From Candidatus Woesebacteria bacterium GW2011_GWA1_44_23 (GTDB lineage: Bacteria; Patescibacteriota; Microgenomatia; UBA8517), in contig LCIL01000005.1 in the NCBI GenBank assembly GCA_001001045.1, forward strand, positions 21,409 through 85,408: a stretch of 64,000 nucleotides of DNA, given 5' to 3'. The translations under genes and the position numbers were made by a program. Positions within the stretch are counted from its first letter, which is position 1; the number at the start of each line of letters is the position of its first letter. The notes beneath the pieces are model-generated. The model was not told the DNA's origin and made no database searches. It saw only the letters and a program-made list of their open reading frames with translations. This document shows, piece by piece, positions 6,641 to 45,050 of the stretch.

Positions 6641-6687
6641 CTAAATCCTTTGCAAATTATATCGTATGAACTATACTTTTAGAAGAT

Positions 6688-7326: not shown

Positions 7327-7331
7327 ATGCA

Positions 7332-8039: not shown

Positions 8040-8233
8040 AAAATGACAAGGCACAAACTACAAACTTCAATTATCGGCATATTTCTATTTTTACTTGGTT
8101 ACTTGAGGTATCCCTTTCCATCTCTCCCCCCATTACCGAACTTGCCATCCAACCGGGCAGAAGTTTCAGCCAGGTTTTTACCGTCAAAAATAACGGGGTT
8201 CCCGTCACCGTCGTTGCAAAGATTTTCCCATTT

Positions 8234-8938: not shown

Positions 8939-9004
8939 TCTCAGTTTCCAAGTTTGGTAATTGTCACTTGACAGGATTTATAGCATGTATAACAATCTAT
9001 CTGT

Positions 9005-10534: not shown

Positions 10535-10535
10535 T

Positions 10536-14193: not shown

Positions 14194-14201
14194 CTAAATA
14201 T

Positions 14202-18890: not shown

Positions 18891-18925
18891 GCGGATCTTC
18901 GGTTGTTGTTAACTCCCTAACCGGA

Positions 18926-27417: not shown

Positions 27418-27418
27418 T

Positions 27419-29007: not shown

Positions 29008-29100
29008 CTTGTTTAAAGGTTAGGGCCAAATGTTTACCCTGTCAATACGTCTTGAGCGTCCCACTGTAAAATTGTTGGGGTATGTCATATAATCGGCCGT

Positions 29101-29886
29101 ATGCTCTCGATCATAATTCCGTCTTATAAAGATCCCCTACTGGGTAAAACCATTGAATCTCTTCTGGAAAACGCCGAGGGTGAAATAGAAATAATCCCCG
29201 TTCTTGACGGATACTACCCGGAAACCCCGATAAAAGAGGATAGAAGAATAAGAGTTGTGCACCTTGGCAGAAATCAAGGTATGCGAAGAGCGATAAACGC
29301 GGGAGTTTCGGTAGCCCGGGGGGAATTTCTGATGCGGAACGACGAGCACCAGATGTTCGGCAAGGGATATGACGTAATTCTTACCCGTGATTGTCAGCCT
29401 AACTGGATTATCACACCCAGGCGTTATGCGCTTGATCCTGTAAAGTGGGAAATAATGAAAGAGGTTCCACCGGTAGATTTCATGAAGCTTAAAATCGTCA
29501 ACATGGCACCCGGTGTCAGAAAATTTTCAGGTGTTGAGGCCCCGGGAGATCCGGGAAAACCCATTCAGGAATCAATGGCTATGCAGGGAAGCTGTTGGGT
29601 AATGCCGCATGCATGGTGGGACAAAGTTATCGGAGAGCTCGAAAACGAAGGTTATGGACCACATTATCAGGACAGCCATGAGATGGTGTTTAAAACCTGG
29701 CAGGCAGGGGGAAAATTAATGGTAGATAAAAACACCTGGCACGCCCACAAACACAGGAATTTTCCCCGGACGCATAATAACGGCACTGCCGAAAACCCAT
29801 CCAATAATGAATCCTGCTGGGCTTATTCATTAAGTATTTGGGAAGATTACTATAATAAAGAAATTAAACCAAGGTGGAAGGTTTAA
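29101..29886 (+). CDS. glycosyltransferase family 2-like (GT-A) protein, paralog family with QGSCW motif
   Basis: MLSIIIPSYKDP...; motif MAMQGSCWVMP shared with the 31019 and 36362 products. Confidence 0.55.
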   Translation: MLSIIIPSYKDPLLGKTIESLLENAEGEIEIIPVLDGYYPETPIKEDRRIRVVHLGRNQGMRRAINAGVSVARGEFLMRNDEHQMFGKGYDVILTRDCQPNWIITPRRYALDPVKWEIMKEVPPVDFMKLKIVNMAPGVRKFSGVEAPGDPGKPIQESMAMQGSCWVMPHAWWDKVIGELENEGYGPHYQDSHEMVFKTWQAGGKLMVDKNTWHAHKHRNFPRTHNNGTAENPSNNESCWAYSLSIWEDYYNKEIKPRWKV

Positions 29887-29913
29887 CAAAATTGGAGTTA
29901 TAATTCCATCACG

Positions 29914-30132
29914 GTGGCTATTATATATGAAAGTATGAAAAAAACTATTGGGGAGCTTATCGACGGACTGTCTATTACTAACAACAAGATCTTCCATCTC
30001 GTCGACAAAGTCCAGCGCAACGAGCATACGCGCGAGGATGCAAAAAAAATCCAAGATTTAAATAAGTTAAGAAGTGAGTATATGAATGCTATAAACGAAT
30101 TCTTTAAGGAAAGGATAGATATAAAAGTGTGA
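29914..30132 (+). CDS. small hypothetical coiled-coil protein (72 aa)
   Basis: Its stop overlaps the next gene's GTG start (translational coupling). No similarity recognised. Confidence 0.3.
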   Translation: MAIIYESMKKTIGELIDGLSITNNKIFHLVDKVQRNEHTREDAKKIQDLNKLRSEYMNAINEFFKERIDIKV

Positions 30133-30917
30133 TTAGTATTTTCTCTGGAACAAAATTAACATCCTCCCGGATTAGAGGTATAGAAATGGCTACCTATCTC
30201 CAGGCCAAACACAACCCAAAAGAAGGATATAAAAACGATGTTTGTATTTATGTCAAACCCAAAGAAATGAGCGCAATTAAAGACGGTGACTGGGTTGATT
30301 TTCTAGATTCCAACATCAGCCTCATCGTCCAGTTGAAGGATCGGCCAAAGGTAAAGGTGATTGCCGCTTCGGAAGCCAGCAATGAAGCCCTCAAGCGGGT
30401 TTTGCCAAACGAAATTATCCTTATTCCCTCACATCACATCAATCAGGAAAAACTTAAAAGAACAAGAAGGCAGATCTCTATCGGAGGCTATATCGGAGGA
30501 TTCTCACCCATGTATGAAGAAATTAGAAGAGGGTTAAAGAAAATCGGATTTGATTTTGTAACCTGCTTCGATTTCAAAGGACGAACAGATGCGATGAAAC
30601 TGTACGAAAGCATCGATCTTCTGATTATTGGGTGGTGGACCGGAGACGACAGCCCCCATAAGATACCGACCAAGATTATCAACGCCGCCTCGTTTGGAAT
30701 CCCGTCGATTGCATATCCTTTGCGCGGATATAAAGAAATTGAAGGATTTTATGTTTCTGCTCATAATTTAAGTGAGATAATAACTGAAGCGGAAAAATTT
30801 AAGGATGAGGACTATTACAATAGATGGGCAAAGAAGATTTCCAAGATGGCTGAAAAATACCATATTAGCAAGATTGCCAAACTATATAAAAAACTAAAAC
30901 CAGGTTTTCCTGCTTAA
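30129..30917 (+). CDS. putative glycosyltransferase (GT-B-like C-terminal motif)
   Basis: ...KIINAASFGIPSIAYPLRGYKEIEG resembles the GT4-type nucleotide-sugar-binding C-terminal motif. Confidence 0.4.
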   Translation: MISIFSGTKLTSSRIRGIEMATYLQAKHNPKEGYKNDVCIYVKPKEMSAIKDGDWVDFLDSNISLIVQLKDRPKVKVIAASEASNEALKRVLPNEIILIPSHHINQEKLKRTRRQISIGGYIGGFSPMYEEIRRGLKKIGFDFVTCFDFKGRTDAMKLYESIDLLIIGWWTGDDSPHKIPTKIINAASFGIPSIAYPLRGYKEIEGFYVSAHNLSEIITEAEKFKDEDYYNRWAKKISKMAEKYHISKIAKLYKKLKPGFPA

Positions 30918-31018
30918 ATCTCTTGAAGGAATGGGGTATTATACACATTCGGAGAGAAGAGTAATTCCATACCTTCCCTGCTGAGAATCGGGTAAAATGG
31001 TGCGTATAGAATATCCAT

Positions 31019-31888
31019 ATGGGTTCAAACAAAAAACCAATAAACTTATCAATAATAATTCCCAGTCGAGATTGCCCCTATTTAATGAAAACTATCCAAA
31101 GTATATTAGACAATTGCGTCACCAATATTGAAATTATGGTAAATATTGACGGAAAACCCCCGAGAAAATTTATTAAGGACAAAAAGGTCACATATATCGT
31201 ACAACCTACTCCAATTGGGATGCGGGGCGGAATAAATAATGGGCTTAAAGCAGCTAAGGGCAAATTTATAATGAAGTGCGATGACCACTGCTTATTTGCT
31301 AAAGGATTTGACAAGATTCTGACAAACACCATGCAAGAGAATTGGCTGGTAACCCCCAAACGTTATTCTCTAAACGAAGTGAAATGGGAAAGGGATGAAA
31401 CCCGACCAATTAAAGAATATCTCTACCTATCCTATCCCAAAAAGTCCGTTCACGGACTTGCCATGTTCCCCGTAGATTGGAATAAAAAAAGTGATCGTCT
31501 TATAGATGATACCATGATGATTCAGGGAAGCTGTTGGCTAGCAAACAGAAAATATTTCATGAAACGAGTGGGTTTTCTTGACGATAAGCCTGAAACGTAC
31601 GGGACCTTTGCCCAGGAACCCGTAGAAGTTGCTTTGAAATACTGGCTTGGAGGCGGGGCGGTCAAGGTAAACAAAAATACCTGGTATGCCCACCTAAAAA
31701 AGAGTAAAAGGTACTATAACGAAACAGGCTGGGCAGAAAAGTTTGCAAAGCAGAACAAAGCAGTAGCAAAAGGCAATGAATGGGCAACCGTACACTGGAT
31801 GAATAATGAGGAACCCAACATGATTCACCCTTTTAGCTGGTTTATAAAAAAATTTCAACCGATTCCGGGTTGGGAGAATTACAAATGA
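31019..31888 (+). CDS. glycosyltransferase family 2-like protein (QGSCW paralog)
   Basis: LSIIIPSRDCP...MMIQGSCWLANRKYF. Confidence 0.55.
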   Translation: MGSNKKPINLSIIIPSRDCPYLMKTIQSILDNCVTNIEIMVNIDGKPPRKFIKDKKVTYIVQPTPIGMRGGINNGLKAAKGKFIMKCDDHCLFAKGFDKILTNTMQENWLVTPKRYSLNEVKWERDETRPIKEYLYLSYPKKSVHGLAMFPVDWNKKSDRLIDDTMMIQGSCWLANRKYFMKRVGFLDDKPETYGTFAQEPVEVALKYWLGGGAVKVNKNTWYAHLKKSKRYYNETGWAEKFAKQNKAVAKGNEWATVHWMNNEEPNMIHPFSWFIKKFQPIPGWENYK

Positions 31889-33372
31889 AAAAAATACTAA
31901 TAACAGGATGCGGAGGGATGTTGGGCGATGCTGTTTATGCTCAATTACGTAAAAGGTATCATGTCAACGCCACCGACATCAACCTCATTGAACCCTGGCT
32001 AAGTTACTTGGACGTCAGAGACCTTAAGAGTGTTAAAAAGGTTTGCGCCGAATTCAAACCGGATTATCTGATTCATCTGGCAGCCTTAACCGACATGGAA
32101 TACTGTGAAACCCACCCAGAAGAGGCGGCGCAAGTTAACGGAACTGCCACAGAAAATCTGGTTAAAATCTCCAAAAAACTTGATATTCCCTTTGTCTACA
32201 TCAGCACTGCAGGTATTTTTACCGATGACAAAAAGGAGCATAGCGAAAAAGACGACCCCAAAGACACTCCTGTAAGTGTATATGGCAAAACCAAATACCA
32301 AGGTGAGGTAGCAGCGAAATCATGGCGTAAGTCGATCATAATCAGGGCCGGTTGGATGATGGGTGGCGGACCCAAAAAGGACAAAAAATTCATCAATAAA
32401 ATTGTCAAACAATTAAGTAGCGGCGCTACAAAGATAAATGTGGTCAACGACAGGGTCGGCACCCCAAGCTATACCTACGATTTGGCAAAAATAATTGTAT
32501 TTCTTCTCGAAAGGAATCTTTACGGTTTATATCACGGCACTTGCGACGGAGGAAACGTAACCCGCCACGATGTCGTCAGTCATATACTTGAATGTTTTAA
32601 CTTGCAAGACAAGGTCAAAGTGGTTGAGGTGGGATCAGATTATTTTAAGGATAGTTTTTTTGCCCCGCGGCCGTTTTCCGAACAGCTAGGCAACAAAAAA
32701 CTTAAATCCACCAACCCAGAATTATTCCGCAGCTGGCGGGACTGTTTAAAGGAATATTTAGGCATGTTTTATTGGAAAGTATCAGGCAACCATACCCCGC
32801 TTTGCGATCTGGCCTATAAATACGGAACCGACAAATGTCCGGAAATAAACCATTCGTATACCCCTTTTTATTACAAATTGCTACAACCCAAAAGAAACTC
32901 TATCAAAAAGATTTTGGAAATAGGAATAGGCTACCCGTCCAACATGAATCATATCGTCCCCCATTACCGGGCGGGTGCAAGTTTATATATGTGGAGGGAG
33001 TTTTTCCCCAACGCCATGATTTACGGAGCTGATATTCTCCCGGAAGCGTTGTTCAAAGACGCACATATAGAAACTTTTTTGTGTAACCAGAAAAAAGACA
33101 CGGACCTAACGAATTTAATCAAAAGCACGGGCTCGGATATCGATATCGTAATTGACGACGGCTCTCATGTAAAAAAGGTCCAGGTGTTTACTTGCCTTAT
33201 CCTATTGCCTCTTCTCAAAAAAGATGTTATTTACATAATAGAAGATGTTAAAGATGCCGTCGAGGTTACCGGAATGATTAAAAAACTCGGCGGGTATGAT
33301 TGCGAGGTTCCGAAGTTGAACCCGGAAAGGCAAGTGAGGCAGGATTGTTTGGTTATTGTTAAAAACAAATGA
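31870..33372 (+). CDS. bifunctional protein: RmlD-like dTDP-4-dehydrorhamnose reductase (SDR) fused to class I SAM-dependent (sugar O-)methyltransferase
   Basis: N-terminal ITGCGGMLG...YGKTKYQGE (YGxSKxxGE RmlD signature). C-terminal LEIGIGYP...DIVIDDGSH (MTase motifs I and post-I). Confidence 0.6.
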   Translation: MGELQMKKILITGCGGMLGDAVYAQLRKRYHVNATDINLIEPWLSYLDVRDLKSVKKVCAEFKPDYLIHLAALTDMEYCETHPEEAAQVNGTATENLVKISKKLDIPFVYISTAGIFTDDKKEHSEKDDPKDTPVSVYGKTKYQGEVAAKSWRKSIIIRAGWMMGGGPKKDKKFINKIVKQLSSGATKINVVNDRVGTPSYTYDLAKIIVFLLERNLYGLYHGTCDGGNVTRHDVVSHILECFNLQDKVKVVEVGSDYFKDSFFAPRPFSEQLGNKKLKSTNPELFRSWRDCLKEYLGMFYWKVSGNHTPLCDLAYKYGTDKCPEINHSYTPFYYKLLQPKRNSIKKILEIGIGYPSNMNHIVPHYRAGASLYMWREFFPNAMIYGADILPEALFKDAHIETFLCNQKKDTDLTNLIKSTGSDIDIVIDDGSHVKKVQVFTCLILLPLLKKDVIYIIEDVKDAVEVTGMIKKLGGYDCEVPKLNPERQVRQDCLVIVKNK

Positions 33373-34091
33373 AAAATCTACTGGTTTATGTAAGTAAAGA
33401 TAAAAAGTTTAACCGGGAGTGTGAGACTCTGGCCAAAATCCAAATTGACAACAGTCTTCGTTTAAAGTGGAGAAAAGAAGATATTTTAATGGTCACTAAC
33501 TTTGATTATGAGTATCGGGGAGTTAAAGCTATCGTTGTAGGGGACGAGAATTATTGTGCAGTCAGGCCAAGATCGATTAAAACTTCGATAATCCCCCACT
33601 TAATTGAAAAGGGAATCATAGAAAAAAGGCATATTTACTGGAATCATGATTTTGACGCTTTTCAATTGCATTCTATCAAAGATGAAGAATTGGGACTAGA
33701 CGGTTTTGATGCGGGCTTTACCGACTACGGTTGGAAAAACGACTGGTGTTTGGGAAGTGATTTTATAAAGGAGAGCGCAAAAGACATCTTTGAGTGGCTG
33801 AGGGACGCAATATTTGCTAATTGGGAGGATGAGGAAATACTCGGAAGAATTACGAGAAGGAATACACATAATATCAACTCGAGAATAAAGAAAATGAATA
33901 TAACTTATCAGATTGGAATGAAAAACGTTGATTTTAACTACAAAATAGCTGCAAAACCGCTAAAAGTTCTCCACTTCCATCCGCATAAACCGGGGCTCCT
34001 AGACATCTTCATGTACGGCAAAAACCAAACGGACAAACCCCTTATGCCTAAGGGTTTAATCAATATATTTAATAAACACGGAATAAAGTAA
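33369..34091 (+). CDS. hypothetical protein (glycan-locus associated)
   Basis: 240 aa, no recognisable motif. Start overlaps the upstream stop. Confidence 0.45.
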   Translation: MKNLLVYVSKDKKFNRECETLAKIQIDNSLRLKWRKEDILMVTNFDYEYRGVKAIVVGDENYCAVRPRSIKTSIIPHLIEKGIIEKRHIYWNHDFDAFQLHSIKDEELGLDGFDAGFTDYGWKNDWCLGSDFIKESAKDIFEWLRDAIFANWEDEEILGRITRRNTHNINSRIKKMNITYQIGMKNVDFNYKIAAKPLKVLHFHPHKPGLLDIFMYGKNQTDKPLMPKGLINIFNKHGIK

Positions 34092-34260
34092 ATACGTTAT
34101 GAGCAAACCATCAGTGGTGGCAATCTTGCCGAATTTTTAAAAAGTATTAGAAAAAGGTGCGAAAACCTATAGAGATCCATAATATTTGCAATCCAAATAT
34201 TAATTCCCAAACGAATATCCTGGGTATCGGAATGAAGGTCATGGAAATTTTCAGAAATAT

Positions 34261-34944
34261 ATGAATAGAGATTTAACAATAATTTATTACTCATCTAATC
34301 GGGAAGTGCCCGAGTTTGAGACCAGAATTAGGAACAATATTTTAAAAGTTTGTGGCGATTTGCCCATAATAAGCGTTACTCAAAAGCCGATAGACTTTGG
34401 AAAAAATATTGTTGTTGGAGATGTGGGAGCTTCTGGGTTTAACATGTTTAGGCAAGTTCAAATTGCCTGCAAGGAGGCAACAACGAAGTTCGTAGTTTCT
34501 GCTGAAGCGGATTGCTTGTACCCCCCGGACTATTTCACCTTTATTCCCGAGAAGGACAACGTATGTTACCGTAATAAAAATCTATATGTAATGGGTCAAT
34601 ATAGAACCTATTTCTACAAAAAGGAGGAAGGTGCAACGCACGCCCAAGTGGTCGGGCGGGAGTTCTGCTTAAGAACTCTGGATAAACTTTTTGAAGGAGG
34701 TCCGAATTGGTCAATCAAGGAGAGAAATTTCCCCAAAGAGAGGACTCATCAAAAAAAGGAGGATGTTTTTGGCAGTGACGAAATTGAATTCTACGAGACA
34801 AAAAATCCGATTGTACAAATAAAAACAAGCCACAGCATGCGACATTACACTCATTCTGATAGAATACCTCGTGACGAACTTCCCTATTGGGGCAAGGGGG
34901 TAGATTTTAGAAAAAAATATTACGATATCGGATTTAGGCATTAA
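34261..34944 (+). CDS. hypothetical protein, paralog family B (QPIDFGKNIV motif), possible GT-A-like
   Basis: Shares ...V(S)..QPIDFGKNIV...(E)AD/EHD..LY.P..F with the 35578..36321 product. Confidence 0.45.
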   Translation: MNRDLTIIYYSSNREVPEFETRIRNNILKVCGDLPIISVTQKPIDFGKNIVVGDVGASGFNMFRQVQIACKEATTKFVVSAEADCLYPPDYFTFIPEKDNVCYRNKNLYVMGQYRTYFYKKEEGATHAQVVGREFCLRTLDKLFEGGPNWSIKERNFPKERTHQKKEDVFGSDEIEFYETKNPIVQIKTSHSMRHYTHSDRIPRDELPYWGKGVDFRKKYYDIGFRH

Positions 34945-34946
34945 AT

Positions 34947-35576
34947 ATGAAACTAATAGATGCAATTAAAGAGCAGCACGGAAGGCCATTTACAATCCCC
35001 GATTGCTCCCGTGATGAACTCCCCGAATGTTTTAAACAAATGGGCTACAAAACAGGGGCAGAGGTCGGGGTTTATAAGGGGGCGTTTACCGAAAAATTCT
35101 GTAAAGCAGGCTTAAAAATGTATGCCATAGATCCCTGGAAGGCATATCAGGGAGCCGGCCGTACTCAACAGGAACAAGCAAGGCAAGACTTCCTTTACGG
35201 GCATACTCAAAGGACTCTCGCTCCCTATAAAGACTGTACAATAATCAGAAAGACGTCGATGGACGCTCTAAACGACTTCGGCCCGGGAAGCCTGGACTTT
35301 GTCTATTTGGACGGCGATCACCGCTTCCCGTACGTGGCACAAGATATTTATGAATGGAGCGAGAAAGTCAAAAACGGTGGGGTGGTCTCCGGGCATGATT
35401 ATTTCTGCACGGATCCACGGGCAAAAAATGTTTTGTGCCAGGTGGGCGCGATAGTAGATGCTTATGTTAGTGCCTTCGGAATTGAAAATTTTTATGTATT
35501 CGGACGGTCCAAATCACTGGAACTTGAGGCCAAAGATGACAGATATCTAAGCTGGATGTGGATTAAGCCTCTCTGA
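34947..35576 (+). CDS. class I SAM-dependent methyltransferase (Methyltransf_24/TylF-like)
   Basis: GAEVGVYKGAFT...FVYLDGDHRFPYVAQDIYEWSEKVKNGGVVSGHDY. Confidence 0.55.
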   Translation: MKLIDAIKEQHGRPFTIPDCSRDELPECFKQMGYKTGAEVGVYKGAFTEKFCKAGLKMYAIDPWKAYQGAGRTQQEQARQDFLYGHTQRTLAPYKDCTIIRKTSMDALNDFGPGSLDFVYLDGDHRFPYVAQDIYEWSEKVKNGGVVSGHDYFCTDPRAKNVLCQVGAIVDAYVSAFGIENFYVFGRSKSLELEAKDDRYLSWMWIKPL

Positions 35577-35577
35577 C

Positions 35578-36321
35578 ATGACAAGCACAAAAGGGTGCAT
35601 TTACTACACCGATAACCGCCCGAAGTCTTTTATTTTGGATAAATGCCGTGAGGAAATTTTAAAAGGCTGGAAAGGTCCCCTGGTTTCGGTTTCGCTTCAA
35701 CCGATTGACTTCGGCAAAAATATAGTCTTGGCAGGGGTAGAACGCGGACTCCCGACTATGATCAAACAAATAACAATGGCTTTGGAGGCACTGGATACTG
35801 ACATTGTCTTTTTTCTGGAACATGATGTTTTATATCACCCGTCTCATTTCGATTTCACTCCCCCAAAGGAAGAAATCTATTATTACAATCTCAATAACTG
35901 GCGCTGGGGAATTAAGGAAAATTTTGCTATTACATACGATGGTCTGACCTCCCTTTCTCAACTCGCATGTTACCGAAAAACTGCCCTAAACCATTATAAA
36001 GGAAGACTTAAATACATCATTGACCACGGACTTAACAAGGACCAAAGCCGGGATCCGAGATGGGGACGGGTTATGGGCTACGAGCCCGGAACAAAGCCCA
36101 GGAGGAGGGGTGGTTTTTCCGATGAAAAGTTTGAGATTTGGAAAAGCGATTTTCCAAACATAGATATCCGCCACAGACATACATTTTCCCCGCCGAAATA
36201 CAATTTGGCTGATTTCAAACATCAACCGATAAACTTCCGCCAAGAGAAAATTGAAAATATTCCTTACTGGAATCTGAAAACGTTGCGGGATCAATGGCTG
36301 GATAAATACATAATAAATTAA
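35578..36321 (+). CDS. hypothetical protein, paralog family B
   Basis: Paralog of the 34261..34944 product. Confidence 0.45.
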   Translation: MTSTKGCIYYTDNRPKSFILDKCREEILKGWKGPLVSVSLQPIDFGKNIVLAGVERGLPTMIKQITMALEALDTDIVFFLEHDVLYHPSHFDFTPPKEEIYYYNLNNWRWGIKENFAITYDGLTSLSQLACYRKTALNHYKGRLKYIIDHGLNKDQSRDPRWGRVMGYEPGTKPRRRGGFSDEKFEIWKSDFPNIDIRHRHTFSPPKYNLADFKHQPINFRQEKIENIPYWNLKTLRDQWLDKYIIN

Positions 36322-36361
36322 ATGAATAAAGGCATGGTTCTCCACACCGCTTTTCCCGGCT

Positions 36362-37474
36362 TTGATAATGCCTAAGTATGCTGTATTATTGCCTCACGCG
36401 AAACCTATGGCTGATCTTTCAATATTAATACCGGCACGGAATGAAATATTTCTGGCCCGCACGATAGAAGACCTCCTGGCAAACATCGAGGCTGATACCG
36501 AGATCATCGCTGTTTTGGACGGGGTACCCGCCAACCCTCCGATTCCCAAAAATGAAAGAGTAAATGTAATCTCCCTTTCCGAAAGTATCGGACAAAGGGC
36601 GGCAACTAATCTTGCCTGTAAATTAAGCCGCGCCAAATATGTAATGAAGGTAGACGCACACTGCGGATTTGATAAAGGTTTTGACCGAAAAATGCTCGAG
36701 GCATTTAAAATTACCGGAGACAACGTTACGATGGTCCCAATTATGCGTAACCTCTGGGCATATGACTGGAAATGCTACCACTGCGGCTGGAAAAAATACC
36801 AAGGCCCCACTCCGGAAAAGTGTGGGCAGTGCGGTAAGGGAGACAAAATTAGAAGAAAGATGCTTTGGATCGGAAAACATAACCCTCAAAGTACTTCTTA
36901 CTGCTTTGACTCGTCTCCCCATTTCCAGTACTTCGAGGATTGGAAACACCGGCCGCAATACGAAAAAGACAAGAGAGAAACGGGACTGACTGAAACAATG
37001 AGCCTGCAGGGCAGCTGCTGGATGTTGACCCGCGAAAAATACTGGGACCTTAATGTTTGCGAAGAAGCATTTGGGGGTTGGGGTTCTCAGGGAATTGAAG
37101 TTGCGGTTAAAACCTGGCTTTCCGGAGGTAGAGTTATTGTCAATCATAAAACTTGGTATGCACATATGTTTAGAACCCAAGGGGGCGACTTCGGGTTCCC
37201 CTACCCGATTTCAGGAAAGGATCAGGAAAAGGCGAAAAGATATGCAAGGGATTTGTTTTTCAACAATAACTGGAATAAGCAAATTCGCCCTCTTTCCTGG
37301 CTCATCGAAAAATTCTGGCCGGTGAAGGGGTGGGCAGAAGAAGACTTGACCAAGCTTAAAACAAACACTTTCAGATTTAAAGAGAAAGCGGAGCCAAAAC
37401 CTGCCGAGAGTGAGCCCGTTACAAGTGATCCGGTAAGAAACCATCAGACGGGTGTTATTTACTCCGCCACTTAA
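36362..37474 (+). CDS. glycosyltransferase family 2-like protein (QGSCW paralog) with inserted CxxC...CxxC zinc-ribbon
   Basis: LSILIPARNE...; WKCYHCGWKKYQGPTPEKCGQCGKGD; MSLQGSCWMLT. Confidence 0.55.
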   Translation: MIMPKYAVLLPHAKPMADLSILIPARNEIFLARTIEDLLANIEADTEIIAVLDGVPANPPIPKNERVNVISLSESIGQRAATNLACKLSRAKYVMKVDAHCGFDKGFDRKMLEAFKITGDNVTMVPIMRNLWAYDWKCYHCGWKKYQGPTPEKCGQCGKGDKIRRKMLWIGKHNPQSTSYCFDSSPHFQYFEDWKHRPQYEKDKRETGLTETMSLQGSCWMLTREKYWDLNVCEEAFGGWGSQGIEVAVKTWLSGGRVIVNHKTWYAHMFRTQGGDFGFPYPISGKDQEKAKRYARDLFFNNNWNKQIRPLSWLIEKFWPVKGWAEEDLTKLKTNTFRFKEKAEPKPAESEPVTSDPVRNHQTGVIYSAT

Positions 37475-37520
37475 TCAAGAAATTCTTCAGAGTTAGAATC
37501 TCATAGTTACAAATTTTAAG

Positions 37521-37574
37521 AATGTATATAATGGCTTAGCCGTTTTGAAACGGTTATGTTGTTGTATATAAATG
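37521..37574 (+). promoter_or_regulatory. conserved roughly 50-nt element (TATAAT box plus 13-bp palindrome CCGTTT(T)GAAACGG) upstream of the SP-repeat gene; copy A
   Basis: aatgtatataatggcttagccgttttgaaacggttatgttgttgtatataaatg is nearly identical to 44912..44961. Confidence 0.6.
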
Positions 37575-37648
37575 TTTAAGAATAAATACTTCTCAGATGG
37601 CTTCAGAAAGGAGGAGATTAGTATAAAAACTAACAGGAGGAAAATCTA

Positions 37649-40600
37649 ATGGCAGTAACATACGTCAAAGCTAGTACCCCCAATACAGATGCGGCGGGAG
37701 CCTTTACAGTAACAGGTGCAGCTCCTGCTGTTGCTGGGAATATTATCATCCTTCAAATTTTTCAGGACGGTACTACTGACGGGGCGGTAACTCAAACCAG
37801 TGCTACCAATATTACTGCTCTAGATGGTACGGCTAATACATGGACTGCTATTACCGAACAGTCGGTAGGAGCATCAGACGAAGGTAGACAGTATCTATGG
37901 GTAGGGCGTTCAAGCGGAAGGTCTACTCCCACATTTACAGGCGGCAACACAACTTCAGAGGATCTTTACCTCAGGATGTATGAGTTTAGCGGAGTAGATG
38001 CTAATGCCACGACTTTATCTGGGATTCTTGAAAACGGTACTGCAGGAACTGTAGCTAACGGCACTGGAACATCTGCGTCCGTTTCTGATACAAGCGTTCA
38101 GACACTGGGAGATGGCCGGCTCGCATTAAATTTTATCGCTGTAAACGATGATCCCCAGGCAGCAGAACTAGCCGCAATGACTGGTGAAACAGGGGGGGAT
38201 TGGGCTTATCCTGTTGCTGCGTGGGGTTCTAGTTCTGGCACTGACGGTACAATCGCTTTAGTTACAGCTTCTATCCCTTCTTCGGGAACAATTGATGGAG
38301 GCTCAGATGCCATAACTTCAGCTGCTTGGGGGGTGATAGGCTTTGCCCTTAAACCTGAATTTACTCCAACAGTAGCTTTAAGTACCCCTGCAGATGACGC
38401 GACAGGAGTAAGTACCACCCCAGCCCTAGTTTTTACAGGAACAGATGCTAACTCAGATGAAGTGGAATATGAGGTACAGGTAGATACAGTAAACACTTTT
38501 GATTCTTCGTCAGCCACTATGGCTAGCAATAGTGAAAGTACTTATGACCATGATTACATTGATAATTATAATTCAGTACCTCCTTCATGGTATGGTCAGA
38601 CATTTACCCCACCTTTTATGGGACCCGTCACTTCAGTTAAGTTTTATTTAAAAGGTTCCGATGGTTTAACGGGTAACATGCCAGTTAGATTGTATGCCAC
38701 AGACACCTCTGGTACTCCAGTAGGTGAAATATTAGCCACATCAGCTAATTTGGATTTATCTAGTCTTTCAACTTCTGCTTATGAACTAGTAGAGTTTATA
38801 TTTAGTTCCCCATACACAGTTGAGTCTGGGGTTCTGTATGCATTAACTTTAGAAAATCTTAGTTCCTCTAACCTATATGTTGGTGCAGATATTAGTTCTC
38901 CTGCTTATACAAATGGTACTGCAATTAGTATGAGTCCCGGTGGTTACCTGACTGTTGCTAGTGATTTATGTTTTTATGTTTATAGTGGAGGTTCTCTTCT
39001 TGACATCTTCTCCCTCGCCGATAACGATGCTAACTGGGCAGGCACAGGAGCACCTAATCCCTTTCCTTCAGGAAATGAAATAACCTATACAGTACCGGCA
39101 GGAAGTGCTTTAGCCGCAGGAACTACTTATTACTGGAGAGTACGAGCTATTGACCCTCTAGGAAGTAATGCCTGGGGATCTTGGAGTCCTGGGGCACATA
39201 GTGGATATAGTGAGTTTACAACACAGGCAACAGGTTCATTTTCGCCTTCGATTTCTCCATCTGTAAGTCCAAGTGCGTCTCCTTCGGTATCCCCCTCAGT
39301 CAGTCCGTCTATCTCGCCTTCTGTAAGTCCCTCAGTTAGCCCTAGTGTTTCCCCAAGTCTATCTCCCAGCGTTTCTCCTTCTGCATCTGTTTCGCCATCA
39401 ATCTCACCCAGTGTTAGTCCTTCGGAAAGCCCATCAGTATCGCCCTCGGTCTCGCCTTCAGTTTCACCCTCTGCATCCATATCTCCATCGACCTCACCCA
39501 GTGTTAGTCCATCAGTAAGTCCCAGTGCAAGTGCTAGCCCATCGGTCTCACCATCGGCTAGTCCGTCGGTGTCTCCCAGCGTTTCTCCTTCCGTAAGTCC
39601 GTCGGCTTCTGTTAGTCCGTCTATGAGTCCGAGTGTATCGCCCTCTGTAAGTCCCTCTGCATCAGTTTCACCATCTATCAGTCCTTCTGTGTCTCCCTCC
39701 GTCAGCCCCAGTGTCAGCCCCAGTGTCTCACCCAGCGCAAGTATCTCTCCAAGTGTTAGTCCCAGCGTGTCGCCAAGTGCTTCTCCTTCTATTTCACCTT
39801 CCGTTTCTCCATCAGCTTCTATATCTCCGTCAGTTTCGGAAAGTGTAAGTCCATCCGTTAGCCCAAGTGCGAGTGTAAGCCCGTCGGAATCACCGTCAGT
39901 TAGTCCATCTGTATCTCCAAGCTTTAGCCCTTCGATCTCAGCCAGTATATCGCCAAGCATATCTCCGAGTGTGTCCCCTTCGGCTTCCGTATCCCCATCG
40001 GTTTCCCCCAGTATCAGCCCTTCTGTCTCCCCAAGTGCCAGCCCAAGTCAAAGCCCATCGGCATCAATTAGTCCTTCCGTAAGTCTATCCATTTCTCCTT
40101 CTTTCTCTCCGTCCGCATCCATTAGTCCCAGTGTCTCTCCCAGCATATCGCCCTCGATCAGTCCATCAGTATCCCCTTCGGAGTCTCCCTCTGCATCAGC
40201 TAGCCCATCTATTAGCCCTAGCGTATCTCCTTCTGTCTCGCCCAGTGCTTCTGTGTCCCCTTCGGTAAGTCCGTCTGCAAGTGTTTCGCCTTCTGTCTCC
40301 CCATCGGCCAGTCCATCTGTCTCTCCGAGTCAAAGTCCATCGATTAGCCCATCAATTAGTCCGAGTATATCTCCTTCCGTTTCGCCTTCAGCGTCGATTA
40401 GTCCGTCAATTAGTCAATCAGCAAGTCCGTCAGTGTCACCGAGTGCGAGTATTAGCCCTTCACTAAGTCCAAGCATGTCTCCTTCTGTTTCTCCTTCTGG
40501 GTCAATCTCACCCTCAATAAGTGCTTCCGTTTCGCCTTCTGTCTCCCCTTCAGCATCTATTTCTCCGTCAATAAGTCCTTCTATTAGTCCGTCTGTTTCC

Positions 40601-42538
40601 CCATCGACTAGTCCATCTGTCTCTCCGAGTCAAAGTCCATCGGCTTCGATTTCCCCGTCTGTCTCTCCAAGCGTTTCTCCTTCAATAAGTCCATCGGTAA
40701 GTCCAAGTTTGTCTCCTTCGGTAAGTCCTTCAGCTTCGGTTTCACCAAGTATCTCGCCAAGTTTGTCTCCTTCGGTTTCCCCCAGCGCAAGTATTTCACC
40801 TTCCATTTCTCCAAGCGTTTCTCCTTCGATAACTATATCATCGTCTATCAGTCCAAGTGTGTCACCCAGTGTCAGTCCATCGGTAAGTCCTTCGGTATCA
40901 TCTTCTCAAAGCCCTTCCGCATCAGTATCCCCATCAGTTTCACTGTCCGTAAGCCCAAGTGTATCTGCGAGCGTTTCCCCGTCGGTTTCCCCTTCAGCCG
41001 GATCAAGCGAGTCTCCATCACTTTCACCAAGTATAAGCCCATCAATTAGCCCCTCAGTTTCCCCATCTGTCAGTCCTTCGATTTCCCCTAGTGTTTCGCC
41101 ATCAATCAGTCCTTCTGCTTCGATTTCTCTATCTGTAAGCCCGTCGGTTTCACCATCAGTCAGTCCGTCGATAAGCGCTTCCGTTTCACCAAGCCCCAGT
41201 GTTTCTCCTTCGACTAGTGCGAGCATTTCTCCTTCCATTAGCCCATCAGTCAGTCTGTCGGTGTCACCCTCAATTAGTCCAAGTGTCTCTCCTTCGGTTT
41301 CACCAAGTATCTCGCCAAGTTTGTCTCCTTCGGTTTCCCCCAGCGCAAGTATTTCACCTTCCATTTCTCCAAGCGTTTCTCCTTCGATAATCAGCCCTTC
41401 GGTGTCACCAAGTATAAGCCCATCCATTTCGCCCAGCATCTCACCTTCTCAAAGTCCGTCAGTGTCCGTATCACCTAGCCAATCTCCCTCCGCCTCTCTG
41501 TCACCGTCAGTATCGCCCAGTGCAAGTATTAGCCCTTCAATAAGTCCAAGTGTCTCACCTTCGGTTTCACCTTCTGGATCAATCTCACCCTCAGTAAGCC
41601 CTTCTGTTTCACCTTCTGTCTCTCCTTCAGAATCTATTTCCCCGTCAATAAGCCCATCCCGCAGCCCGTCAGTTTCTCCATCCATCAGCCCGTCAGCAAG
41701 TCCGTCTGTGTCACCAAGCGCAAGTATTTCGCTGTCTATTAGCCTGAGTGCTTCTCCATCTGTTTCCGCCTCGATATCGCCGTCTGTTTCACCTTCTGTA
41801 AGTCTCAGCGTTTCTCCTTCGATAAGCCAATCGGTAAGTCCAAGTTTGTCTCCTTCGGTAAGTCCTTCAGCTTCGGTTTCACCAAGCGCAGGCTTTTCAA
41901 TTTCACCCAGCGTTTCACCGTCTCAAAGCCCTTCGGCTGCGGCTCCCTCAAGTCTCAGTCCATCCGTGTCTCCATCAATTTCTCCTTCAATTGCCATTTC
42001 AACCTCACTATCTCCAAGTGTGTCCCCTTCTATCTCAGCATCCCCATCAATACCGTCTTCAATATCTCTTTCTGTATCACCAAGTGCGAGTCTAAGTCCA
42101 AGCCTGAGCCCATCGGTCGGTCCTAGCGGGAGTCCGCCAGCTTTGCCCAGCACCAGTGCCTCTTTCTCTGTTAGCCCAAGTGCCTCACCGTCACTGTCTG
42201 CTAGTGCTTCTCCTACTGAATCAGCATCACCTTCACCTGCCACGGTGGTATATTCTGCCAGCGCCAGCCCGAGTGTTTCTCCGTCGATCAGCCCCTCTCC
42301 CGCCCGCTATGCATCACCAGAAAAGCCCAGCTTTTATTATGACTCCGCTATTGTTCTCCGGGATGTGGCAAATCGTGATGTTAACTTAAGTGGGCTTCAA
42401 GATACCATACCTTCATGGAACAATGCAGGCCGGCCGAAGAATTTAAAACCCGCCACATTAGGTTTCAATATTGAGACAAAGGATCTCGAATTATATGACG
42501 GATCATTATGGCATAGGCTGCCAATGAAAAAAGTATAG
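37649..42538 (+). CDS. giant Ser/Pro-repeat surface protein (1629 aa): N-terminal globular/FN3-like region, about 1000 aa of SPSxSP repeats, conserved C-terminal domain
   Basis: RBS ggagg upstream. N-terminal region includes ...TTYYWRVRAIDPLGSNAWGSWS. Repeats SPSVSPSISPSVSPSAS.... C-terminus ...PSWNNAGRPKNLKPATLGFNIETKDLELYDGSLWHRLP. Confidence 0.8.
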   Translation: MAVTYVKASTPNTDAAGAFTVTGAAPAVAGNIIILQIFQDGTTDGAVTQTSATNITALDGTANTWTAITEQSVGASDEGRQYLWVGRSSGRSTPTFTGGNTTSEDLYLRMYEFSGVDANATTLSGILENGTAGTVANGTGTSASVSDTSVQTLGDGRLALNFIAVNDDPQAAELAAMTGETGGDWAYPVAAWGSSSGTDGTIALVTASIPSSGTIDGGSDAITSAAWGVIGFALKPEFTPTVALSTPADDATGVSTTPALVFTGTDANSDEVEYEVQVDTVNTFDSSSATMASNSESTYDHDYIDNYNSVPPSWYGQTFTPPFMGPVTSVKFYLKGSDGLTGNMPVRLYATDTSGTPVGEILATSANLDLSSLSTSAYELVEFIFSSPYTVESGVLYALTLENLSSSNLYVGADISSPAYTNGTAISMSPGGYLTVASDLCFYVYSGGSLLDIFSLADNDANWAGTGAPNPFPSGNEITYTVPAGSALAAGTTYYWRVRAIDPLGSNAWGSWSPGAHSGYSEFTTQATGSFSPSISPSVSPSASPSVSPSVSPSISPSVSPSVSPSVSPSLSPSVSPSASVSPSISPSVSPSESPSVSPSVSPSVSPSASISPSTSPSVSPSVSPSASASPSVSPSASPSVSPSVSPSVSPSASVSPSMSPSVSPSVSPSASVSPSISPSVSPSVSPSVSPSVSPSASISPSVSPSVSPSASPSISPSVSPSASISPSVSESVSPSVSPSASVSPSESPSVSPSVSPSFSPSISASISPSISPSVSPSASVSPSVSPSISPSVSPSASPSQSPSASISPSVSLSISPSFSPSASISPSVSPSISPSISPSVSPSESPSASASPSISPSVSPSVSPSASVSPSVSPSASVSPSVSPSASPSVSPSQSPSISPSISPSISPSVSPSASISPSISQSASPSVSPSASISPSLSPSMSPSVSPSGSISPSISASVSPSVSPSASISPSISPSISPSVSPSTSPSVSPSQSPSASISPSVSPSVSPSISPSVSPSLSPSVSPSASVSPSISPSLSPSVSPSASISPSISPSVSPSITISSSISPSVSPSVSPSVSPSVSSSQSPSASVSPSVSLSVSPSVSASVSPSVSPSAGSSESPSLSPSISPSISPSVSPSVSPSISPSVSPSISPSASISLSVSPSVSPSVSPSISASVSPSPSVSPSTSASISPSISPSVSLSVSPSISPSVSPSVSPSISPSLSPSVSPSASISPSISPSVSPSIISPSVSPSISPSISPSISPSQSPSVSVSPSQSPSASLSPSVSPSASISPSISPSVSPSVSPSGSISPSVSPSVSPSVSPSESISPSISPSRSPSVSPSISPSASPSVSPSASISLSISLSASPSVSASISPSVSPSVSLSVSPSISQSVSPSLSPSVSPSASVSPSAGFSISPSVSPSQSPSAAAPSSLSPSVSPSISPSIAISTSLSPSVSPSISASPSIPSSISLSVSPSASLSPSLSPSVGPSGSPPALPSTSASFSVSPSASPSLSASASPTESASPSPATVVYSASASPSVSPSISPSPARYASPEKPSFYYDSAIVLRDVANRDVNLSGLQDTIPSWNNAGRPKNLKPATLGFNIETKDLELYDGSLWHRLPMKKV
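39240..42290 (+). repeat. coding tandem repeat array, 9-nt/18-nt periodicity (SPS[VIAL]SP)
   Basis: Direct reading of the translation. Antisense ORFs (GE/TD/LG-rich) are artefacts of the same repeat. Confidence 0.85.
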
Positions 42539-42855: not shown

Positions 42856-43902
42856 GTGACTGCCCATGATTATCAAGCCAAACTAAATGGGGTACTATAT
42901 TCCCATGTTTATCGTGATCTCGCATCTGAAAAAATTTTCATTGATAACGAAGATTATCAGGCATTCGTAAACTTCTTAAATGAATACTTGTCTGACAAAA
43001 ATGTTGATGATAGTAAAAAAATATTTACAATAAGGGGGCATACTTACCAAGGAGTCCCCCGTTTACCTAAAAACTTCTCTAAACAGATTGAGCTTTTAGC
43101 CTATAAGTTAGAGCCAAATCGTTTTGACTTCCTGATAAGAGAAAATGTTCCTGGGACTACTCAAAAGTTCATAAGAGCCGTATCAACAAGGTACGCCCTA
43201 TACTACAACAAGAAACATCATCGAACCGGTTCCCTATTCAAGGATACTTACAAACTGGAAAGAATCAGCGATCCTGCACTACTACCAGGTCTAATTCGTA
43301 GCCTCCACAGTAACTTTAGTAAAAAAGACGGTGTGCCCGATCATGCTTACTCTTCATGCCCTGAATATCTTGGTCAAAGAGCATCGAATTGGATCAATTC
43401 GCAGGCTATACTTTCTAATGAAGGACTGGGTGATCAAAAGCTGTACCCGGAAAAGGGTAAACCGGAAACCGGTGTACGTGTCACCCGTTATCGCCCAAGA
43501 TCCAAAGCCAGGGTACCAGAAATAATATTATCCATTGCGATTCTGGCTATGCTAATAGCTCAAAGTATATTAAGAATCGAAACTTCTTCAACATCAAAAG
43601 CTTCATACTCGCCTCCTTCATACGCTACGGTTCTGGGTGACAAAAGGGAAGCAACGGAAGACGAAAATATAAAAACCGTAGAAGTGAATCAAGGGAAGGT
43701 TTTAATTGATACCGTTGATAATTTGGAAAGTGTAGATATCTATCGGGACGCTTTGTTATCGTCACTTAAAATTGGCGAGGCTAAGGATAATGACATCTTT
43801 GAGCTTGTTTCTGAAAGCCCGGGCTGGTATCAAGTAAAACTTATTAATGGGTCAACTGGCTATGTCTCGTCAGAATATTCGGAAATAATAACGAATTATT
43901 AA
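42856..43902 (+). CDS. IS200-like Y1 transposase domain fused to TM helix and SH3b domain (copy 2, HuH motif degenerated to FDF)
   Basis: GVLYSHVYRDLASEKIFIDNEDYQAFVNFL...IELLAYKLEPNRFDFLIRE...RYALYYNKKHHRTGSLFKDTYK...; TM helix IILSIAILAMLIAQSIL; SH3b ...SPGWYQVKLINGSTGYVSSEY. Confidence 0.7.
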   Translation: MTAHDYQAKLNGVLYSHVYRDLASEKIFIDNEDYQAFVNFLNEYLSDKNVDDSKKIFTIRGHTYQGVPRLPKNFSKQIELLAYKLEPNRFDFLIRENVPGTTQKFIRAVSTRYALYYNKKHHRTGSLFKDTYKLERISDPALLPGLIRSLHSNFSKKDGVPDHAYSSCPEYLGQRASNWINSQAILSNEGLGDQKLYPEKGKPETGVRVTRYRPRSKARVPEIILSIAILAMLIAQSILRIETSSTSKASYSPPSYATVLGDKREATEDENIKTVEVNQGKVLIDTVDNLESVDIYRDALLSSLKIGEAKDNDIFELVSESPGWYQVKLINGSTGYVSSEYSEIITNY

Positions 43903-43903
43903 A

Positions 43904-44572
43904 ATGATCAAAAAAATTATGTTATATGGCAGTTTCTTGGCTGCCAGCTCTGCTGATACGGCCGTTTTCCTTGCGTCTAATGATTATTTTCATCTTGCGC
44001 TTGCCATCCTTCTTTATTTCCCGTTAATTTATATTGCTTTTATAATATTTCCTCGCAGAACCGAATTTGCTGGGAATGTCCCAATCCACCAGGGAAATGG
44101 AATAGAGCCAAACCTGCTAACCACTAACAAGATCGGACAATTTTCCGGCTCCCCTTCCCCTTCGACCGACAGCGTCGAAGTTTCCGACATCAATAAACGG
44201 GTGTTTCTCAAAATGATTGGGGCTACGGGTTTATCCTTCTTCATTTCTTCTCTTATTTCAAAAAGGTTGCCTTCTCATGTTTTCGGGCAATCTGAAGAAC
44301 CAACAACAACCTCTATCATAGATTCCACAGGAGAGGCAGTAGACCCTGCCAAGCACCACCCCACTGACAGCTATAAAATTTCCGAGGTCGACTATGGAAT
44401 TAATACCTATTATGGCTTTATTGATGAAAATGATGGCTGGTTCATTATGGAACAAGATACAAATGCCGGAACCTACCGTTATATAAAAGGCAATGCGAAT
44501 TTTCCTGATAATTGGAGGAGCCGCGAAAGTCTTACATATGACTATTACAATAAAATTTTTGCCAAATCGTGA
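43904..44572 (+). CDS. partner membrane protein (copy 2): KR-FLK motif and conserved C-terminal domain
   Basis: DINKRVFLKMIGATGLSFFISS; C-terminus YGFIDENDGWFIMEQDTNAGTYRYIKG...YDYYNKIF. Start lies 1 nt after the upstream stop. Confidence 0.6.
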   Translation: MIKKIMLYGSFLAASSADTAVFLASNDYFHLALAILLYFPLIYIAFIIFPRRTEFAGNVPIHQGNGIEPNLLTTNKIGQFSGSPSPSTDSVEVSDINKRVFLKMIGATGLSFFISSLISKRLPSHVFGQSEEPTTTSIIDSTGEAVDPAKHHPTDSYKISEVDYGINTYYGFIDENDGWFIMEQDTNAGTYRYIKGNANFPDNWRSRESLTYDYYNKIFAKS

Positions 44573-44911
44573 TCTTAATACGTGTTTACAATCAATAGGA
44601 AGTTGAATAGTAAGTGAAGCATGATTTGGACGACGATAGACTTGGGATCGAAAGCGTACCCCACTAGGAATACTCCCGGTGTTTCGATGGAAGCCATGTA
44701 CAAAGCAACAGCCAGTGTGGCTAGGACCAAACCGTGATTACCCACCCACTGGTCCTGCTCAAAGCCGAACAAAGAATCGATGGCAAACGAGTTGAAAGCT
44801 AGCCTGCCGTACCACAGAAAAGCGGTATTTTTATGGCGCTTCAGAAAACCACTTCGCAAATGTCAATTGATGTTTGTAAACTCACAAAATCTTATAGTTG
44901 GAACGCACAAA

Positions 44912-44961
44912 AATGTATATAATGGCTTAGCCGTTTGAAACGGTTGTGTTGTTGTATAAAT
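44912..44961 (+). promoter_or_regulatory. conserved roughly 50-nt element, copy B, upstream of the second SP-repeat gene
   Basis: aatgtatataatggcttagccgtttgaaacggttgtgttgttgtataaatg. Confidence 0.6.
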
Positions 44962-45050
44962 GATACTTATTATTGTTAATAGGCCGCATGCGAATAAAAA
45001 TATATTTTAATGCTGTAATTTATGTAGGTTTTACGTTCAAGTAATCTAAA

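Follow-up and report, generated by a model that had tools for sequence, protein, structure and literature searches.

Two giant genes of Candidatus Woesebacteria bacterium GW2011_GWA1_44_23 are each preceded by a near-identical copy of a short element that is tentatively read here as a compact, portable promoter and leader-hairpin module of this Candidatus Woesebacteria lineage. Both copies, termed A and B, lie in a 64,000-nucleotide stretch of contig LCIL01000005.1 (hereafter the window, numbered from its first letter), and the genes behind them, likewise termed A and B, encode proteins rich in serine/proline (SP) repeats. The element is conserved in related genomes, keeps a regular position shortly before an ATG, folds as RNA in a strand-specific manner and occurs before other genes as well. 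As a control element it is of an ordinary type, with the behaviour of known promoter-leader hairpins; its family has not been catalogued or described before and is restricted to a few Woesebacteria-like genomes. The copies were first noticed by a model that saw only the letters and a list of open reading frames (ORFs). This sequence-only reading described a -10 box followed by a palindrome, and proposed that the two loci are co-regulated either by a dimeric DNA-binding protein or through a shared 5' leader RNA hairpin. The copies and the blocks upstream of them are as follows.

Copy A of the element: 37521 to 37574, plus strand, 54 nucleotides (nt), covariance model score 75.5 bits (E about 1e-14)
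Copy B of the element: 44912 to 44962, plus strand, 51 nt, covariance model score 76.3 bits
Upstream block A, AATCTCATAGTT: 37497 to 37508, plus strand, aligned with 44888-44899 at an equal 12-nt offset
Upstream block B, AATCTTATAGTT: 44888 to 44899, plus strand, aligned with block A

Both sequences quoted earlier are present in the window, and their distances to the start codons of the SP-repeat genes are as claimed, namely 75 nt for A and about 90 nt for B. For copy B the start at 44912 stands, and the end moves from 44961 to 44962, the position that its 51-nt string reaches. The copies are roughly 96% identical and differ by a 1-nt indel in the loop (TTTT in A, TTT in B), by A37556 against G44946 and by a TA indel (TATATAAA versus TATAAA). 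With up to three mismatches allowed, the 21-nt core TATATAATGGCTTAGCCGTTT matches the window at these two sites only (0.00 expected from shuffled sequences, with two or more matches in 0 of 100 shuffles). No third copy was returned from the 64 kb by an nhmmer profile or by a covariance model run with its filters off, and the statement that the element occurs nowhere else in the window therefore holds. A second shared block, AATCTyATAGTT, lies 12 nt 5' of both copies in gap-free alignment, and the sequences flanking this island fail to align between A and B. Together with the low identity of the neighbouring paralogous proteins (just 28% and 33%), these unalignable flanks rule out a long segmental duplication, which the sequence-only reading had named as an outcome that would speak against it. 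Given this divergence of the neighbouring pairs, the unit must have been duplicated long ago, and the element's identity of roughly 96% is no leftover of that event.

Five distinct versions of the element were compared: A, B and three from related Microgenomates contigs (L016, L009 and L021). One metagenome pattern scan gave four loci only. Gene A lies 3' of a long glycosylation cluster that closes with a family-2 glycosyltransferase (36362-37474), and it was the route through glycosyltransferase homologues, about 80% identical to that of the window, that led to the copies in L009 and L021. The L009 copy is matched at an nhmmer E of 1.6e-4 by a profile of A and B alone, and the L021 copy at 1.2e-6. 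There were no matches in the species-representative genome collection (GTDB) to the patterns TATAATGGNNNNNCCGTTTN{0,1}GAAACGG and TGTATATAATGNCTTAGNCGTTT, and none in viral contigs in three pattern scans, which confines the element to a narrow lineage. Further copies were likewise absent from the non-redundant related loci (searched with nhmmer and with the covariance model, filters off, the latter over about 226 kb including the window), and the element was not found in L020, L022, L023-L026 or the phage-like loci L011-L015 and L027.

The position of gene A, right after the glycosyltransferase, is taken in L016 by a B-type gene (MATRLYLPSTG...), and the homology between L016 and window B begins exactly at the 5' edge of the element. 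The two are 98% identical within the element (48/49), 78.5% over the remaining leader (73/93), 94.5% over the first 146 coding nt and 43% upstream, which makes the element the most constrained part of this region. The presence of a B-type gene where an A-type gene would be expected suggests that SP-gene cassettes may have been exchanged with the element as their boundary. Neither the derived G (ATGGCT) nor the upstream 12-mer that copies A and B have in common occurs in the B orthologue of L016; the 12-mer is also not present in L009 and L021. Because these features are shared by A and B and lacking in L016, gene conversion between the window copies may have acted besides selection. As to the wider locus, positions 1-11341 of L016 and 26257-37649 of the window follow the same order, from a Y1/SH3 gene and a twin-arginine-signal gene through the glycosylation cluster to the glycosyltransferase.

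The copies in L009 and L021 stand directly 5' of a conserved gene of 375 amino acids (aa) that lies in glycosylation clusters, carries no SP repeats and is without a homologue in the window. Specificity to SP-repeat genes is thereby excluded, and the sequence-only reading, which had tied the element to these genes and had itself counted occurrence at unrelated genes as evidence to the contrary, is corrected on this point. L009 has a divergent upstream neighbour, and the element lies there in an intergenic gap of 100 nt. In L021 an 89-aa XRE-family helix-turn-helix (HTH) gene (9613-9882) lies immediately 5' of the element, and the window encodes no homologue of its protein. The distance from the end of a co-directional gene to the element is 40-60 nt in A, L016 and L021. 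As a side observation, L022 (7918-8036) carries an orthologue of the 375-aa gene with the same TGTGTATATAAT box ~100 nt upstream and TATAAATTATG at its start; no significant fold or hairpin accompanies TGTGTATATAAT there (z +0.55), and promoters with such a -10 context may be common in these genomes.

Hairpin and probable promoter features

Within the two window copies, the following parts can be placed.

-10-like hexamer TATAAT, copy A: 37527 to 37532, plus strand, TG two bases upstream and an A-rich tract before that
-10-like hexamer TATAAT, copy B: 44918 to 44923, plus strand, read from the sequence
Long imperfect hairpin A: 37523 to 37570, plus strand, 13-bp G-U-rich outer helix, 1x1 mismatch and 8-bp inner hairpin
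Long imperfect hairpin B: 44916 to 44958, plus strand, specific to plus-strand RNA
Inner hairpin A: 37537 to 37556, plus strand, 8 pairs (3 of them G-C), loop of 4, -7.9 kcal/mol, holding the palindrome at 37540-37553
Inner hairpin B: 44928 to 44946, plus strand, 8 pairs, loop of 3, -7.1 kcal/mol
U/G-rich tract TGTTGTTGT: 37557 to 37565, plus strand, 3' arm of the outer helix and a weak T-rich tail in the terminator scan

The five-version alignment has a nearly invariant order of parts, consisting of an A-rich tract, GTATA with TATAAT, CTTAG, YCG...CGG, T-TGTT and TA-A-A. The palindrome reported earlier is real and measures 13 nt in B as described; in A it measures 14 nt (CCGTTT-TG-AAACGG), and in both copies it is just the apical part of a longer imperfect hairpin of 19-21 bp that includes the -10 box. 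Nor does it follow within 5 nt of TATAAT, as had been stated, since 7 nt (GGCTTAG) separate TATAAT from CCG; the extended stem begins at TAG, 4 nt past the box. In the window copies, TATATAATGRC pairs with GTTGTTGTATA by way of several G-U pairs, for a total of 19-21 pairs and one mismatch.

As plus-strand RNA, the versions A, B, L016, L021 and L009 reach minimum free energies (MFEs) of -20.8, -17.3, -17.8, -16.1 and -11.0 kcal/mol, with z values against shuffled sequences of -5.9, -4.6 (-4.55), -4.7, -3.3 and -1.6. A fold as good as that of copy A was obtained in 0 of 200 shuffles. The reverse strand gives -4.5, -4.0, -4.0, -3.5 and -10.7 kcal/mol in the same order, and DNA parameters give -5.3 for A and -4.1 for B, where the inner stem alone forms. 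Of the two alternatives offered by the sequence-only reading, a 5' leader RNA hairpin is thus the better fit, given a fold that is strand-specific as RNA and weak as DNA. In the window, Rfam returned no family at gathering score save 5S rRNA and tRNA, and permissive E-values yielded chance-level matches below the gathering score.

Over the five versions, 92% of the pair cells are paired, as against 25-47% in slid controls. Two pairs are altered on both sides (including A-U to G-C in L021), and six are altered on one side and still paired. The spacing from CCG to CGG is 8, 7, 7, 6 and 6 nt across versions, and L009 and L021, where the stem is kept by G-U-compatible changes, no longer have the inner TTT/AAA. 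In these same two versions the helix is open opposite -10 positions 4-6 and the hexamer is still consensus-like. Since the hexamer is kept where its partners are unpaired, the -10 sequence seems to be constrained in its own right.

The claim of a -10 box is borne out, as every version but L021, which has TATATT, carries the consensus TATAAT. L009 also presents the arrangement TTCAAA-N16-TATAAT, whose -35 matches at 4/6 positions, and because its element lies within the 100 nt that separate two divergent genes, a promoter for the downstream gene is required there. The -10 box, the CTTAG at the expected distance and the L009 arrangement together argue that transcription starts inside the element, with the start predicted at the A or G of the invariant CTTAG (about 37538 in copy A and 44929 in copy B). 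TAG fits a Y-R-R start element, and a start 4-10 bp past the -10 box corresponds to the range examined for the RNA polymerase of E. coli (PMC12641261). If the start is A37538, the ATAGTT of upstream block A falls at about -35 to -30 and matches TTGACA at 1/6 positions. A tandem second promoter (TTGAAA and TATAAA) was considered and rejected, as its spacing differs between A and B and its box becomes TACAAA in L021.

An ATG follows 2-7 nt past the hairpin in all five versions, shifted 3 nt downstream in L016. In L009 and L021 it is the real start of the 375-aa gene, whose N-terminus reads MKK(I/T)LVIMG and which has no Shine-Dalgarno sequence. In the SP-repeat loci it opens a short upstream ORF, which in L016 has 29 codons and stops one base before the main ATG. 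The two upstream ORFs of the window are the following.

Upstream ORF of gene A: 37572 to 37649, plus strand, 25 codons, opening at the element's terminal ATG, with a TAA that overlaps the ATG of gene A (TAATG, 37647-37651)
Upstream ORF of gene B: 44960 to 45010, plus strand, 16 codons, opening at the element's terminal ATG and stopping 41 nt before the start of gene B

In MFE folds of the leaders, the conserved UGUUGUUGU tract pairs with the opening codons of the main gene, its start codon among them, through 9-10 pairs, G-U included (37556-37565 with 37652-37660 in A, and 44946-44955 with 45051-45060 in B). This long-range pairing may be due to chance, because its z is weak and the GCAGTAACA of gene A occurs in phage-context homologues that have no element.

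Proposed function and rival explanations

Under the module reading, the promoter would be dominated by its -10 region (the A-rich tract, TG and TATAAT) and would fire at the A or G of CTTAG. A self-initiated transcript would open with the 8-bp inner stem-loop, beginning in copy A at A37538 or G37539, and a hairpin placed at the very 5' end could protect the mRNA from decay that depends on that end. Behind the hairpin would come a single-stranded U/G-rich stretch (37557 to 37565 in copy A, unpaired if transcription begins inside the element), then an A/U-rich tract and then the AUG. This AUG would serve as the true start in the 375-aa gene and as the start of the short upstream ORF in the SP-repeat genes, where translation may be handed on to the main gene, as the upstream ORF ends on the start codon of gene A and one base before the start in L016. 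Transcripts that read through from outside would also carry the 5' arm with its -10 sequence; these could form the full 19-21-bp hairpin, with the tract 5' of the AUG buried. Expression would thereby be tied to the module's own promoter, much as in the fold-back inhibition of IS10, and genes A and B would receive the same transcription and leader signals and be co-expressed with no dedicated repressor.

Several observations weigh against this reading. The TG lies two bases before TATAAT, which is one base off the register of an extended -10, and L021 has GGG in its place. No acceptable -35 hexamer is conserved, and a promoter scan found no sigma-70 pair for copy A and just one unrelated weak pair, downstream, for copy B. 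The L009 version folds weakly, as its z of -1.6 indicates. Covariation among the five sequences is not significant, as 39 of 500 shuffles reach the observed score; the changes in the inner stem are one-sided only, with none two-sided, and the outer helix could in part be a by-product of two self-complementary TATA-like runs. In the SP-repeat genes the ATG of the module is not the gene start, and gene A carries an AGGAGG of its own 75 nt downstream. Gene B has an upstream ORF that is uncoupled from the main start, and the idea of a conserved upstream-ORF peptide was rejected because the peptides of A, B and L016 are not conserved. Finally, the stabilising and insulating roles of the hairpin are suggested by analogy alone.

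Other readings account for part of the same evidence. The main rival, possible if unlikely, is that the entire element is an RNA hairpin inside a longer transcript made by read-through or from an upstream promoter, with TATAAT mere stem sequence and the 19-21-bp stem by the AUG acting as a processing site (for RNase III, for example) or as the site of a translational regulator. The strand-specific, G-U-rich fold across the whole element, with z down to -5.9, is what such a hairpin would leave behind, and in L021 one outer pair has changed from A-U to G-C at the very position at which the downstream TATA-like box has been lost (TACAAA). The co-directional genes that lie 40-60 nt before the element in A, L016 and L021 could supply the longer transcript, and the AUG 2-7 nt past the stem in all versions would suit either role. 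However, the upstream gene of L009 is divergent and leaves about 55 nt, with no convincing promoter, before the hairpin; no positionally conserved -10-like box lies 5' of the element across the five versions, and TATAAT or TATATT stays intact opposite unpaired columns, which would not be expected under a pairing-only constraint. The inner hairpin and U-rich tract could alternatively form a promoter-proximal attenuator, pause or weak terminator, perhaps read by a processive antitermination factor so that transcription of the 5-kb repeat genes runs to the end, but this is improbable. The stem is weak for that purpose (-7 to -8 kcal/mol, 3 G-C pairs) and the U tract is broken by a G, even though both copies are flagged as terminator-like, with eight pairs and then TGTTGTTGTA. 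The location of the element in or beside glycosylation clusters and before very long genes (the 5-kb repeat genes) would suit an attenuator, as would the presence of Rho at 53106-54431; against it, there is no ops consensus, the start codon at most 25 nt downstream in L009 and L021 leaves little room, and no NusG paralogue appears among the window ORFs covered by a non-exhaustive scan or in the Pfam annotations of the related loci.

The palindrome as the operator of a dimeric DNA-binding regulator, placed over +1 and co-regulating both loci, was the first proposal of the sequence-only reading and is now judged to be quite improbable. A perfect CCGTTT/AAACGG inverted repeat does lie just past the -10 box in A, B and L016, and an XRE-family HTH gene adjoins the L021 copy. 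Yet the repeat is not kept in the diverged copies: the half-sites are spaced CCG-N8, N7, N7, N6, N6-CGG, the inner half-site is lost in L009 and L021, and the stem changes through G-U intermediates, which are relevant to RNA and not to duplex DNA; the fold is also weak when computed as DNA. In addition, no regulator gene is found in the ORFs flanking either window copy, the HTH protein of L021 has no counterpart in the window, and the motif occurs just twice in 64 kb. A DNA-level hairpin for recombination or mobility, either REP-like (a repetitive extragenic palindrome) for Y1-transposase-like proteins or a homology boundary for swapping modules, has only a slim chance of being the explanation. 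It would account for the B-type gene at the A position in L016 with homology from the 5' edge of the element, for the signs of gene conversion between A and B, for the invariant CTTAG 5' of the stem, and for the paralogue with a sub-threshold Y1_Tnp match that precedes each locus (E 0.0011 and 0.0083). Those matches are nonetheless under the Pfam threshold, and one paralogue has no HUH motif; the fold is weak as DNA; the two window copies are the only ones, both on the plus strand and both before genes, with no REP-like abundance and none elsewhere in the loci scanned. The called-gene tables of L009 and L021 contain no Y1-like gene, these loci having been covered by the tables and not by a transposase search, and conservation of the element at ~70% across genomes with a ~80% identical glycosyltransferase points to purifying selection. 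That the element is a functionless remnant, kept identical between paralogous loci by recent gene conversion alone, is very improbable indeed. An old tandem duplication of a unit made of the Y1/SH3 gene, the twin-arginine-signal gene and the SP-repeat gene would provide the paralogous loci, and SP repeats favour recombination; but the orthologous element is 98% identical against 78.5% for the leader and 94.5% for the coding sequence, and other genomes carry a recognisable copy in front of a different gene.

The module reading can be carried further, although the extension is a long shot. The element might be the dual-purpose head of a cassette in bacteria of the candidate phyla radiation (CPR), both expression switch and recombination boundary, and might thus contribute to surface or host-attachment variation in an episymbiotic lineage. 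As a switch, with its promoter set inside a strand-specific fold-back hairpin, it would allow only self-initiated transcripts to be translated, with the SP-repeat genes receiving the signal through the coupled upstream ORF. As a boundary, it would mark the 5' limit of the cassette, with the SP repeats and the C-terminal domain as the 3' limit, and the phage-tail-fibre-like N-terminal modules of giant surface proteins would be swapped between loci or strains. The idea of exchange arises because L016 has a B-type gene at the A position.

For Microgenomates, as for other CPR bacteria, there is almost no experimental knowledge of promoters and leader RNAs. The compact unit, with its -10 box, 5' hairpin and start codon lacking a Shine-Dalgarno sequence, offers a defined test construct. 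It may also be used as an annotation probe for giant SP-repeat genes that are missed by gene callers and for the genes expressed alongside them. If fold-back or cassette exchange is true, the element would represent a way for reduced genomes to insulate or diversify the expression of surface proteins; if these readings fail, it would be an ordinary shared promoter and leader.

The Ser/Pro-repeat genes and their setting

The two genes behind the window copies are laid out as follows.

Gene A: 37649 to 42538, plus strand, Ser/Pro-repeat protein of 1629 aa, with AGGAGG at 37635-37640
Gene B: 45051 to 49365, plus strand, Ser/Pro-repeat protein, present in the window as three ORFs (45051-46496, 46607-48106 and 47905-49365)

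The gene B of L018 (contig Ga0156354_154, reverse strand 5787-10814) is uninterrupted, with a single ORF of about 1674 codons, and exceeds the window version by roughly 700 nt, which points to repeat-length variation or assembly collapse in window gene B. Genes A and B are alike in their SP repeats and in a ~95-aa C-terminal domain with 44% identity, and their N-terminal domains are unrelated. Both probably encode surface proteins that are glycosylated and related to phage tail fibres.

Exact protein matches assign the window to Candidatus Woesebacteria / Microgenomates assemblies of the Rifle aquifer, GCA_001793715.1 among them. The contig is chromosomal, as it encodes ArgRS, LeuRS, ComEC, Rho (53106-54431), S1 and TatC along with a tRNA and 5S rRNA. 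Paralogous gene pairs (26257-28009 and 42856-44572) precede the two loci, directly in the case of B and across the glycosylation cluster in the case of A. The first member of each pair has the sub-threshold IS200-like Y1_Tnp match noted above, a membrane segment and an SH3 domain, and the second has a twin-arginine signal motif (RRxFLK). By alignment, the HUH motif is kept in the gene at 26257 (HFH) and lost in that at 42856 (FDF).

Public gene calls inside the SP repeats are short opposite-strand ORFs rich in GE, GD and TE, and not the long plus-strand genes. Such minus-strand ORFs lie within the SP-repeat genes at 39130-42243 and 45611-48968 of the window and likewise in L001-L008. Genes A and B are consequently largely missing from protein databases. 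When the C-terminal domain common to both was used as query, a single 97-aa fragment came back, and protein-based retrieval of SP-repeat genes mostly fails because gene callers choose the opposite strand in the repeats.

Homologues of the N-terminal domain of gene A (44-61% identity) are stand-alone proteins of about 490-720 aa. In L011-L013 and L027 they sit in tightly packed phage-like structural modules beside an SU10-type adaptor gene, and on the short contigs L014 and L015 the homologue is preceded by just one co-directional ORF. The SP-repeat genes thus look like chromosomal derivatives of proteins of the phage tail-fibre type. The ribosome-binding and start region of gene A, GGAGGAAAATCTAATGGCAGTAACA, is also found in the phage-context homologues of L014 and L015, where it follows another ORF and no element is present. 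Because these homologues share the start region and lack the element, it looks as though the module was placed before a pre-existing translation start of gene A. The surroundings of the start are alike in the otherwise unrelated genes A and B (AATCTAATGGCA at 37640-37654 and AATCTAAAATGGCA at 45040-45056), and the A form also occurs at 1700-1715 of L014.

Further observations also relate to phages. In L005 (14666-16556), the assembly is identical to the window up to 40243, within the SP repeats, and then continues with another C-terminus (EPSTAWTD repeats) and an SU10_adaptor gene; it is either a chimeric join via the repeats or a phage-linked variant of gene A. Positions 13675-23980 of the window hold a 172-aa ORF in which a phage integrase is represented by its N-terminal SAM-like domains alone; giant ORFs of 1562 and 1684 aa follow directly, the latter with weak PHROG tail-fibre matches. 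PHROGs were uninformative for the domains of the SP-repeat genes, and in GenBank phages the N-terminus of gene A had no protein match and DNA matches at chance level only.

Comparison with known systems

Among elements that combine hairpins with gene starts, the closest points of reference differ from the present one in instructive ways. REP elements and their associated tyrosine transposases (RAYT) involve many dispersed copies, often as inverted pairs beside a RAYT gene, unlike the two plus-strand copies seen in 64 kb. Operators over +1 of the LacI, LexA or XRE type resemble the window copies in having a perfect 6+6 inverted repeat right after the -10; in the homologues, by contrast, spacing and half-sites vary in a pattern that fits RNA pairing. 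The element also resembles intrinsic terminators with complementary flanks in its G-C-rich apical stem and its U-rich run able to pair upstream, and the terminator scan flags it. It departs from them in its weak stem, its broken U run and the A-rich sequence after the full hairpin, and in L009 it has no co-directional upstream gene.

The JUMPStart/ops and LoaP leader elements are found upstream of polysaccharide and long operons. They are comparable in that a short conserved element with hairpin potential precedes glycosylation genes and very long surface-protein genes. The present element, in contrast, has no GGCGGTAG ops core, it overlaps the promoter where those elements lie well within the leader, and no RfaH- or LoaP-like gene is among the ORFs scanned.

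In IS10 and IS50, read-through transcripts are subject to fold-back inhibition. Unlike these insertion sequences, the element lacks terminal inverted repeats and is not followed by a transposase, and in A and B the AUG to be occluded is that of the upstream ORF and not of the main gene. The geometry is nevertheless alike, with a 5' arm upstream of the element's own predicted start and a 3' arm just 5' of the AUG, such that only transcripts from outside would form the occluding helix.

Stem-loops at the extreme 5' end stabilise several bacterial mRNAs, as in the 5' untranslated region of E. coli ompA and in the aprE and ermC leaders of B. subtilis. There is no sequence similarity between these stabilisers and the element, whose hairpin tips a longer helix that includes the -10 box and whose start is a predicted one. 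With that start at CTTAG, however, the transcript would lead into an 8-bp hairpin with at most one unpaired 5' nucleotide, which is the geometry that blocks RNases dependent on the 5' end.

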